Source of the DNA: Octopus vulgaris
Taxonomy: Eukaryota
Assembly: GCA_951406725.2 (NCBI GenBank)
Contig: OX597824.1
Location: forward strand, 16,182,001 to 16,246,000
Direction of reading: 5' to 3'
Length of the DNA: 64,000 bases
Below are positions 22,029 through 24,761 of this stretch, piece by piece. Position numbers and translations under genes: made by a program. The notes beneath the pieces are model-generated. The model was given only the letters and a program-made list of their open reading frames with translations. It was not told where the DNA came from and did not search any database. The number at the start of each line of letters is the position of its first letter. Position 1 is the first letter of the stretch.

Positions 22029-22537
22029 CATATATATATATATATACATACATACATACCTACTTATAAGTAGGTGGAGCAAATTTCATAGCAGAGTTAA
22101 TTAAATGCATTCACCAAGTCAGGCTGTATTAATTTCGCAAGTAATACGTTATATTATAAATGGTTGATATTTTAAATTAGGCAAGTAATATTGTAGTATG
22201 GATGGTGAAATTTGTGAAAATGATATTTAAATGTGAGAATTATAACCAGCAAATCGTTAGAATCTGTTTTTCCTGTTTAATTTTCATTAATTTATACATT
22301 TATTTACTATTTATTGAGATATATGTTTGTTTGTTGTTTGGCATTTTATTTCCTTAGAGTTTATTCTGCGTATTATTCTCTTAAGAATAATCAATGTTTT
22401 TTTGTATTTTTATATTTATTTGGTAATTTCACAGATGCAGTAAGAATCTGTGTGCGGCTCACAGATGTGCAACGAAAGATCCAGAGGCTAACGAAGATCA
22501 CATAAATAAATGGAAGAATATTTATAACAGTGTGAAG

Positions 22538-22870
22538 GCGCATGACTCAGTGGCTAGAGCGTCGAACGTACGATCGTCAGGTTGTGAGTTCGAATCCCGG
22601 ACCGGACTGCGTGTTGTGTTCTTGAGCAAGACACTTCATTTCACGTTGCCCCAGTTCACTCAGCTGTAGAAATGACTTGCGACGTCATTGGTGCCAAGCT
22701 GTATCGGCCCCTTTGCCTTTCCCTTGGATAACATCAGTGGTGTGGAGAGGGGAGAGTGGTATGCCTGGGCGACTGCTGTTCTTCCATAAACAACCTTGCC
22801 CGGACTTGTGCCTGGTGAGGGGGTAACTGTCCAGGTGCAATGTCATGGCTATTCGTGACCGAAGTGGGTC
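22538..22870 (+). mobile_element. tRNA-derived SINE with CORE-like domain
   Basis: ggcgcatgactcagtggctagagcg...gagttcgaatcccgg...gttgtgttcttgagcaagacactt; related copy at 41409. Confidence 0.85.
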
Positions 22871-23526
22871 TCCGAAATTTATAACAGTACCCTAGTTTAT
22901 AAAGTGCCCTAGTTTATAAAGTGCCAAGTAATATCATGAGTCTTGTAAGACTCATTGCCTGTGCGATTAGGAAGCTTCCTTGCAATCACGTGGTTTGAGG
23001 ATCATTCACACTGCAAGACATCATTAAACAAAGTACTCGCGTCGATTTGTCCGAGAAAAAAAGTCTTCCAGACGGTGGCCCAGCTTTGTCGTAGTCCAAT
23101 ATCTGAAACAAATAAAAGATAAAATGTGCAAAAGAAAGAAACAAAATTTCAGATTTAAAAAAATTATGCTATTCTTATCCGGATCTGGAGTTGACATCAT
23201 TGACTAACTTCCTTCCAATATTTACGGATTAGCAACTAAATCAAGGACCAAAATTGCAAATATACTCTAGGCAGTGGATTAGCAGAATAGGTAGAGCTAT
23301 AAGCAAATTACCCTGCATTGTTATATTACATTTAATTCGCATTCCGAGTTCAAAGCCCGAGGAATTAATACATGAAGTAAGAACCGTATACAAGTCGAAT
23401 TTTTGCGACCAAAGTTTACTGCCAAAATTGGCAGGTCGACTTATACAAGAGAACGATTTTGGAAAACCAAAGATCGCAATGATGCAAAGCGGCTGCAGTT
23501 GCGAAGATAGCGACGATGTTTGAATG

Positions 23527-24046
23527 TGTTATGTCGCATGTTCGGATGCCTTCTACTCAACTCGACCCTGACCTCTGTCGACGTCTAGACTTCTCCCAAT
23601 ATATATCTACGTATTGGGATAGCTTATTTCATCGTCTGGGGACGTCCACACAACACCTCCCCTTTTTGAGTTTTTAAACCCGAATTTATCAATTTTATTT
23701 CCTCAGTGAGAAACTGGCATATCCTTTTCTCTTAGCGTTAATTTCCATCATTTCTGTAGGTTTTCTCTTCCTGTTCGACCTACGTGTCGGTTCTGCTTTT
23801 GCTTGTGGTTCTGGGTCCTCGAACACTTTTGCTTGCGGTTCTGGGACCTGGAACAAATCATACCATAAACCCATTGAGATATTCCCGCGTGAGTTCGAAT
23901 CTCGTCCTCGTCGCCACTGTTATGTCGCTCGTTCGGATGCCTTCTACACTCAACTCGATTCTGACCTCTGTCGACGTCTAGACTTCTCCCTATACATCTA
24001 CGTATTGGGCTAGACTATTTCATCGGCTGGGGGCGTCCACACAACA
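23527..24046 (-). mobile_element. Miniature internally deleted Gypsy-type LTR element (TRIM-like)
   Basis: Two 129-bp LTRs (23527-23655 and 23918-24046) with TGTT...AACA ends, GAATG 5-bp TSD on both sides, minus-strand PBS TGGCGACGAGG and PPT AAAAAGGGGAGG. Confidence 0.93.
23868..23916 (+). pseudogene. Reverse-transcribed 3' half of tRNA-Ser(GCU) including CCA (extended PBS)
   Basis: AA-CCCAT-TGAGATATTCCCGC-GTGAG-TTCGAAT-CTCGT-CCTCGTC-G-CCA is colinear with anticodon stem 3' strand, long variable arm, T arm, acceptor strand and CCA. Confidence 0.8.
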
Positions 24047-24761
24047 GAATGTTTACACAACATGATTATAACACCGATTCGTAAGCCCGAACAGATAGCA
24101 ACAACCAAATACAATTATTAGCGCCTTTAAAGTGTAAGAAGTACACATGTGCAGCAAATGACTGTCGTCATTCTGTTCTCATTCCACTAAACTGTCTGCT
24201 GCTCTCCGTCAAATAAATGAATATGCAAATAAATAAATAAATGACAAATAATAACGGTTGATGAAAATATTTATTTATAATCAGAAATCTCGGCCAGTTT
24301 AATTAATAGCAATTCAAAATTTGGTCAGTGATTCATTTTAAAATATAATAATTTAAAAAAGAAAAGCAAGACATGACAAAAATTTTGATATTTATATCAT
24401 TTTATTAATTTTGTTATTATTGTATTATTTCTATTTTAATTTTTATTTCACTTGTAACATTCTGACTTTCGTTTCATTTTCTTCTATTTATATTTCATTT
24501 GATTTTTGTATTTATATTTCATTTCTTTTAAACTTATTTATTATTTTTTTAATTTCATTTTATTATGTATGTATTTTATTTCCATTAATTTTTTATTTAT
24601 ATTTAAGTATTTCATAAATATAACTTTTGTTTTATTTTTTTGCAGTTTTTCCACAATAATATAAAAGACAAAATCTGAAATGTAAAAGATAACAAAAGTC
24701 AAGAAAAAATTTGGAAATCGCTTCTAAATTTAAAAGAAAATATTATATTCATATATTTGTC

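Follow-up and report, generated by a model that had tools for sequence, protein, structure and literature searches.

A miniature LTR element in a 64,000-nucleotide stretch of Octopus vulgaris DNA (contig OX597824.1, referred to as the window) carries a tRNA-like sequence that is flanked on one side by the 5' LTR and on the other side by the tail of pol. This arrangement raises the question of how a tRNA segment much longer than a primer-binding site entered the interior of the element and whether its end near tRNA position 37 reflects a stall of reverse transcriptase (RT) at a modified base.

Structure of the miniature element

The element comprises 520 bp, is located on the minus strand and is bordered on both sides by a 5-bp target duplication (Table 1). 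It displays the features of a TRIM: it is short, with two terminal direct repeats of the type TG...CA, a primer site, a polypurine tract and a target duplication, and its coding content is limited to a pol tail that is open for 60 codons, with a stop at 23697-23695. The LTR pair is identical at 116 of 126 aligned columns and differs additionally by two 2-nt indels, indicating that the insertion is old. A single spacer base separates the 5' LTR (24046-23918) from 49 tRNA-like bases (23916-23868), which read on the minus strand as TGG followed by the antisense of tRNA-Ser(GCU).

Table 1. Coordinates of the features of the miniature element in the window
Feature	Positions	Strand	Basis
Target-site duplication GAATG, left copy	23522..23526	.	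sequence
3' LTR, 129 bp, TG...CA	23527..23655	-	LTR comparison
Polypurine tract	23656..23667	-	sequence; adjoins 3' LTR
Parent pol (integrase C-terminal) tail	23695..23877	-	translation; present in parent copies too
10-nt overlap: tRNA antisense positions 46-37 = parent pol; contains junction	23868..23877	-	sequence comparison
tRNA-only part: antisense CCA, acceptor strand, T arm and variable arm of tRNA-Ser(GCU)	23878..23916	-	alignment
Presumed box B motif of tRNA T arm	23893..23901	+	motif seen in sequence
Canonical 18-nt primer-binding site	23899..23916	-	next template base = A58; parent matches first 13 nt only
5' LTR, 129 bp	23918..24046	-	LTR comparison
Target-site duplication GAATG, right copy	24047..24051	.	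sequence

A search of the 2.8-Gb host genome with an exact 28-nt tRNA pattern yielded 35 matches, and none with the reversed control; ARAGORN called Ser(gct) in 13 of the 14 loci submitted. Against the host tRNA-Ser(GCU) gene L036 extended by CCA, window positions 23868-23916 are identical at 46 of 49 bases, with mismatches at 23904, 23877 and 23870; the last match is A37, and the sequences are mismatched from copied base 50 on. A single isodecoder fits, as the L036 type gave three mismatches and the five other gene types tested gave 4-6. These data confirmed the sequence-only reading that the element contains a tRNA 3' half with CCA, acceptor strand, T loop, 14-nt variable region and 3' anticodon stem, which host tRNA-Ser matches well beyond 18 nt. 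Only 39 of the bases are tRNA-specific, since 23868-23877 also occur in the parental pol tail. Opposite A58, at copied base 19, the window copy has the correct T and therefore carries no misincorporation mark of m1A58.

The tRNA match lies between the LTRs and stops at position 37, and the box A region is absent; ARAGORN and Rfam called no tRNA in the window itself. The internal B box of the earlier reading is present as a motif, but it has no accompanying A box and no function of it is supported. A contig from an independent public DNA run (X1) spans 23840-23994 with two differences, and a contig from run X8 spans 23883-24186, making an assembly error at the tRNA/pol join unlikely. The window element is an old, low-copy accident, and function has no support here. 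A repeat search of the whole window was dominated by microsatellites; a separate repeat at 22537-22875, whose head resembles a tRNA and shows box A and B motifs on visual inspection, is probably a SINE.

The parental Gypsy-type element

With the interior of the element as a genome query, 44 matches were listed (40 of 138 candidates scored), most of them starting at query base 45, within the tRNA-like stretch. The parent copy L122 has a length of 4,292 bp and contains pieces of a zinc knuckle, protease, RT, RNase H and integrase in Gypsy order, as deduced by Pfam from seven separate ORF pieces, six of which had hits; its reading frames are interrupted by stops and frameshifts. The order protease, RT, RNase H and integrase between LTRs is that of Ty3/Gypsy elements, and in its short LTRs, zinc knuckle, Ser primer and 5-bp duplication the parent resembles the Mag clade, of which it may be a member. 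The primer site of L122 consists of 13 nt matching the tRNA, and the parent is without the long tRNA sequence, in agreement with the short parental site that had been expected. The short leader pattern gave 374 genome matches, compared with five copies of the tRNA/pol junction.

Several features of this family were observed in addition. The parental leader is a 56-nt tandem unit (L005, L010, L016, L028, L122), each unit containing the 13-nt primer site as well as a duplicate of the final LTR bases; one array of about 6 kb at G000:C3:44313523-44319176 is among the 374 pattern matches. The LTR middle varies in length and purine-rich units in nearly every copy, with paired LTRs usually in agreement. 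Moreover, there are single-LTR elements (L066, L081, L087, L091-L109; 16 examined) that consist of the LTR, the primer site and the remaining leader unit. Their 18-nt primer site is rewritten to the tRNA, their terminus is an LTR-like end, and a 5-bp target duplication with at most one mismatch was detected in 13 of the 15 with a located left end. They probably arose from strong-stop DNAs that had annealed to one another, or by inner-site priming.

The junction lies in a ten-base overlap

Ten bases of the parental pol tail, in the part encoding E-P-M-D-L-W, are identical to the antisense of tRNA positions 46-37. The two parts therefore meet in a microhomology, and the crossover falls somewhere in the last ten bases of the tRNA match. 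With each of the six gene types tested, no match longer than this 10-mer exists between the whole of L122 and the part of the tRNA antisense past the primer-binding site. Two of its ten bases are mutated in the window copy, and it is intact in L002, L025 and L080. Among 2000 codon-shuffled parents, 213 had a match of at least 10 nt, and 28 had one ending at nt 48-49.

The junction is spanned by five copies in the host genome (L001, L002, L008, L025 and L080); a sixth was not found with the junction query among the 40 of 66 candidates scored. Copies L008 and L080 lack one T, by which their tRNA match reaches position 36, a state present in none of 29 parent rows.

Primer tRNA captures at other loci

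Host captures elsewhere end at about 20, 27, 30, 35 and 42 nt. The 42-nt capture in L107 belongs to a second LTR family and a third isodecoder; it ends at tRNA position 44 and is joined at the homologous pol site via its own 9-10-nt overlap. In L066, a 35-nt capture ending in the variable loop is joined in register to the leader, and shorter captures were found in L065 (30 nt), L079 (27 nt) and in L070 and L081 (20 nt each), along with plain 18-nt jumps in L114 and L154. The same kind of jump also started from normal 18-20-nt strong stops (L070, L154, L114). The captures at L065:1327-1655 and L079:1393-1542 lie inside inverted-repeat structures next to a third type of LTR end; L065 joins a sequence that appears RT-like by eye and gave no tblastn hit.

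Metagenome contigs were scanned once for 30 exact bases, which favours ends just past 30. The 15 matches represent 10 distinct loci, namely eight captures and two tRNA genes, L188 and L193, which were rejected as captures because their TGG is there by chance. When compared with tRNA genes from organisms other than the hosts, the captures end at about 33-35 nt in L185, L187, L194 and L196 and at 41-42 nt in L183 and L186, and the longest extend to 53 nt (L190) and 85 nt (L191), both passing A37. By tblastn, the capture is followed by RT in L183 and by gag/protease sequence in L191, while L196 is enclosed by a pair of 211-bp direct repeats; for the other metagenome captures the LTR end was judged by eye. 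In L191, a full 85-nt antisense tRNA-Ser (701-785) follows an LTR-like end and adjoins the gag/protease region. In comparison with tRNA genes of other organisms, its bases opposite the variable-loop position and C32 are A rather than G. Two further candidates, L068 and L182, were excluded from the event list because a clear LTR upstream is absent. The captures in other elements do not cluster at 37/38 and end at varied places, two of them beyond 37.

A probable mechanism of read-through and jump

The captured sequence is antisense to the tRNA, fused to U5, in register and extended beyond nt 18, and it is absent from the parent. Plus-strand strong-stop DNA has the same orientation and the same connection to U5 (PMC13191261, in part), and this matching polarity counts for read-through. 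Very probably, the window element arose from a Gypsy-type element by internal deletion, when over-run plus-strand synthesis and a jump to the overlap joined 49 nt of primer tRNA to pol. Plus-strand synthesis would pass A58, on an under-modified primer or by bypass, into the primer tRNA, and RT would copy 40-50 nt of it. The extended 3' end would be unable to pair with the 13-nt site of the parent and would instead anneal to the minus strand where the element matches it best, about 220 nt before the 3' LTR. Both strands would then be filled in and the 520-bp product inserted by integrase, with about 3.8 kb lost in one step. The overlap would determine the landing site; a pause at t6A37 could contribute and would not be required. 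These steps are read from old copies, and their support comes from finished insertions rather than from intermediates. The polarity and anatomy of the element agree with the earlier proposal that RT read past A58 and then jumped to the 3' end of pol.

That proposal had also held that the junction was fixed by a stall of RT at modified A37, which appears unlikely. The tRNA match does break after A37, and it ends there in three of the five junction copies; stopping at this base gives the longest pairing with pol, and a recurring junction requires frequent 3' ends at 40-50 nt. In HIV-1, RT gives a minor product ending at the known stop at position 37, ms2t6A37 of tRNA-Lys3 (PMC13191261, in part). 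However, the stop cannot be placed at 37, because the last 10 bases of the match are also present in the parental pol tail and the junction lies within this overlap. Only 28 of the 213 shuffled matches of at least 10 nt, about 13%, end at nt 48-49, and the coincidence with 37/38 counts weakly in favour of a stall. Moreover, the match through position 36 in L008 and L080, the extension of L190 and L191 past A37 and the ends of L107 and L066 at position 44 and in the variable loop, respectively, do not fit a stop at this base, and human tRNA-Ser(GCU) has t6A at position 37, not ms2t6A (PMC11233606, in part). The overlap alone explains the junction site.

Repair at the DNA level, in which a deleted full-length insertion was patched from a genomic tRNA gene or free tRNA cDNA, is very improbable. 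There are 10-nt homologies on both sides of the captured part, the parent's own primer site could supply TGG, and tRNA cDNA inserts beside deleted HIV-1 proviruses have been reported (PMC12220202, in part). Against this, across several families and hosts the captured tRNA is always the primer and always keeps its register with the primer-binding site, and tRNA-gene flank was captured in none of the loci read. Furthermore, mismatches opposite A58 (L107, L182) and C32 (L190, L191) are as from a modified RNA template.

Origin of the five junction copies

The five copies may descend from one founding event followed by spread as a TRIM family, helped by 49-nt primer pairing or the internal B box, but we consider this doubtful. 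They occupy five separate sites with one junction, and four of them have their own 5-bp target duplication, L008 being without its left end. Four of the five fit one isodecoder, a substitution found in only one of 29 parent rows is common to L002, L025 and L080, a 30-nt repeat is missing in L025 and L080, and one T is missing in L008 and L080. On the other hand, no column in the alignment unites all five copies, the shared characters contradict one another, and the one-repeat state and the substitution also occur in parents L111-L116 and L118. The copy L025 matches a different isodecoder at 49 of 49 bases, and its LTRs are unlike each other in length and middle. Intermolecular plus-strand transfer yields unlike LTRs (PMC9278108, in part), and those of L025 fit a first-generation intermolecular jump, as expected of one. 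The number of copies, only five among the 40 of 66 candidates scored, and the absence of an A box likewise speak against a spreading family, and a gain from the longer primer pairing is not borne out by these counts.

Phylogenetic trees were built on the pol tail and the 3' LTR after the duplicates L004 and L012-L014 had been dropped and L005 had been trimmed. These trees are star-like. When the five copies were held together, the AU test gave p 0.045 with 27 rows and p 0.26 with 34 rows, the first 10 columns of the latter being misaligned. Common descent of L001 and L010 from shared LTR variants was rejected since L011, the duplicate of L010, is without most of these variants. Taken together, the capture event probably happened more than once and several origins of the five junction copies are likelier than one, and some re-transposition of junction copies may have occurred. 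Both a stall at A37 and a single founder are refinements compatible with capture by over-run plus-strand synthesis.

A possible record of tRNA modifications

Two sites of human tRNA-Ser(GCU), C32 and one in the variable loop, carry m3C, which acts as a hard RT stop or as a site of miscoding (PMC7969016, in part). Copied base 36 faces the variable-loop position that was equated with human 47d by our own numbering. A C is present at this position in 16 of the 30 host genes classed and absent in 14, and it is present in both metagenome tRNA genes. In the host cluster of tRNA-Ser(GCU) genes at G000:C3:70.85-70.90 Mb, at least five variable-arm types are without the loop C. The matching G at copied base 36 was found in none of the eight metagenome captures and in none of the seven host captures of at least 35 nt, and all six host copies of at least 42 nt, from at least three events, fit isodecoders lacking the C. 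In addition, L066 stops immediately before the variable-loop C and L190 immediately before C32, and L191 has A opposite C32. A base other than T opposite A58 occurs in two copies among seven matches of a dedicated search, too few to count. These numbers are small, the scan for 30 exact bases is biased, and some hosts may have T in the variable loop.

Capture ends and mismatches would seem to fit m3C sites in the variable loop and at C32 better than base 37. One could tentatively suppose, at somewhat less than even chances, that the modifications of primer tRNAs are preserved as a fossil map in germ-line LTR elements, to be read from capture ends and mismatches. Captures from C-bearing isodecoders would then stop, skip or miscode at m3C47d, at 35 nt; only C-less isodecoders would be copied on to 42-53 nt, with m3C32 as the next stop, and A58 would leave a mismatch sometimes. 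If this is true, junctions mined across animal genomes would provide a readout of tRNA modification for unmeasurable species and past times, and read-through DNA, supposedly a dead end, would be a routine source of mini-elements.

Significance and comparison with known systems

In retroviral replication, read-through past m1A58 has been regarded as a dead end. The data indicate that in animal germ lines a short overlap can rescue m1A58 read-through to integration, giving a TRIM-like element in one step, and that such rescue took place repeatedly, in several Gypsy families. The captures provide a concrete route for the birth of TRIMs and a cheap test bed for RT meeting tRNA modifications in vivo. 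They owe their significance to their repeated occurrence in different families and hosts and to the possible modification record, not to the window copy. No report of genomic LTR copies with read-through primer tRNA joined to pol was found in the literature searched, mostly recent and openly accessible papers.

With respect to large deletions, Pulsinelli and Temin (1991) reportedly described retroviral deletions that arise by errors in strand transfer and start at the primer site. The window element resembles these in its large internal loss by mis-transfer during reverse transcription; its junction also retains at least 21 extra tRNA bases past the 18-nt site, which may set it apart from them.

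The closest biochemical counterpart are the over-extended plus-strand strong-stops P1 and P3-P5 of HIV-1, with stops at m1A58, Psi55, m5U54 and ms2t6A37 (PMC13191261, PMC8599865, both in part). In both systems, copying of the primer tRNA by RT goes on past nt 18. The HIV-1 products running past position 54 are regarded in the available text of these sources as unable to transfer or integrate, whereas the octopus products, derived from another tRNA with another base 37, were probably rescued by an overlap jump and are integrated in the germ line.

TRIMs are described as arising by internal deletion of an autonomous element (PMC10886601, in part). Like these, the window element is short and has two LTRs, a primer site, a polypurine tract, a target duplication and a parent-derived interior, but it differs by the extra tRNA-templated bases at the junction. 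It shares with the TRIMp3 elements Helenus, Ajax and Cassandra the character of a non-autonomous LTR element with small-RNA-derived sequence. According to the available text of the same source, the TRIMp3 elements carry this sequence in both LTRs with boxes A and B kept, and its origin is proposed to be a SINE insertion. In contrast, the sequence in the window is internal rather than in the LTRs, antisense, restricted to the 3' half, without box A and derived from the primer.

Finally, tRNA-Gly has been found in MMLV circles and beside an HIV-1 provirus, and tRNA-Asp/Glu in HIV-1 nef (PMC12220202, in part). As in these cases, reverse-transcribed tRNA was joined to retroelement DNA, with deletions. 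Unlike these non-primer tRNAs at other places, as far as that source describes them, the capture in the window is the cognate primer, in register with its primer site.
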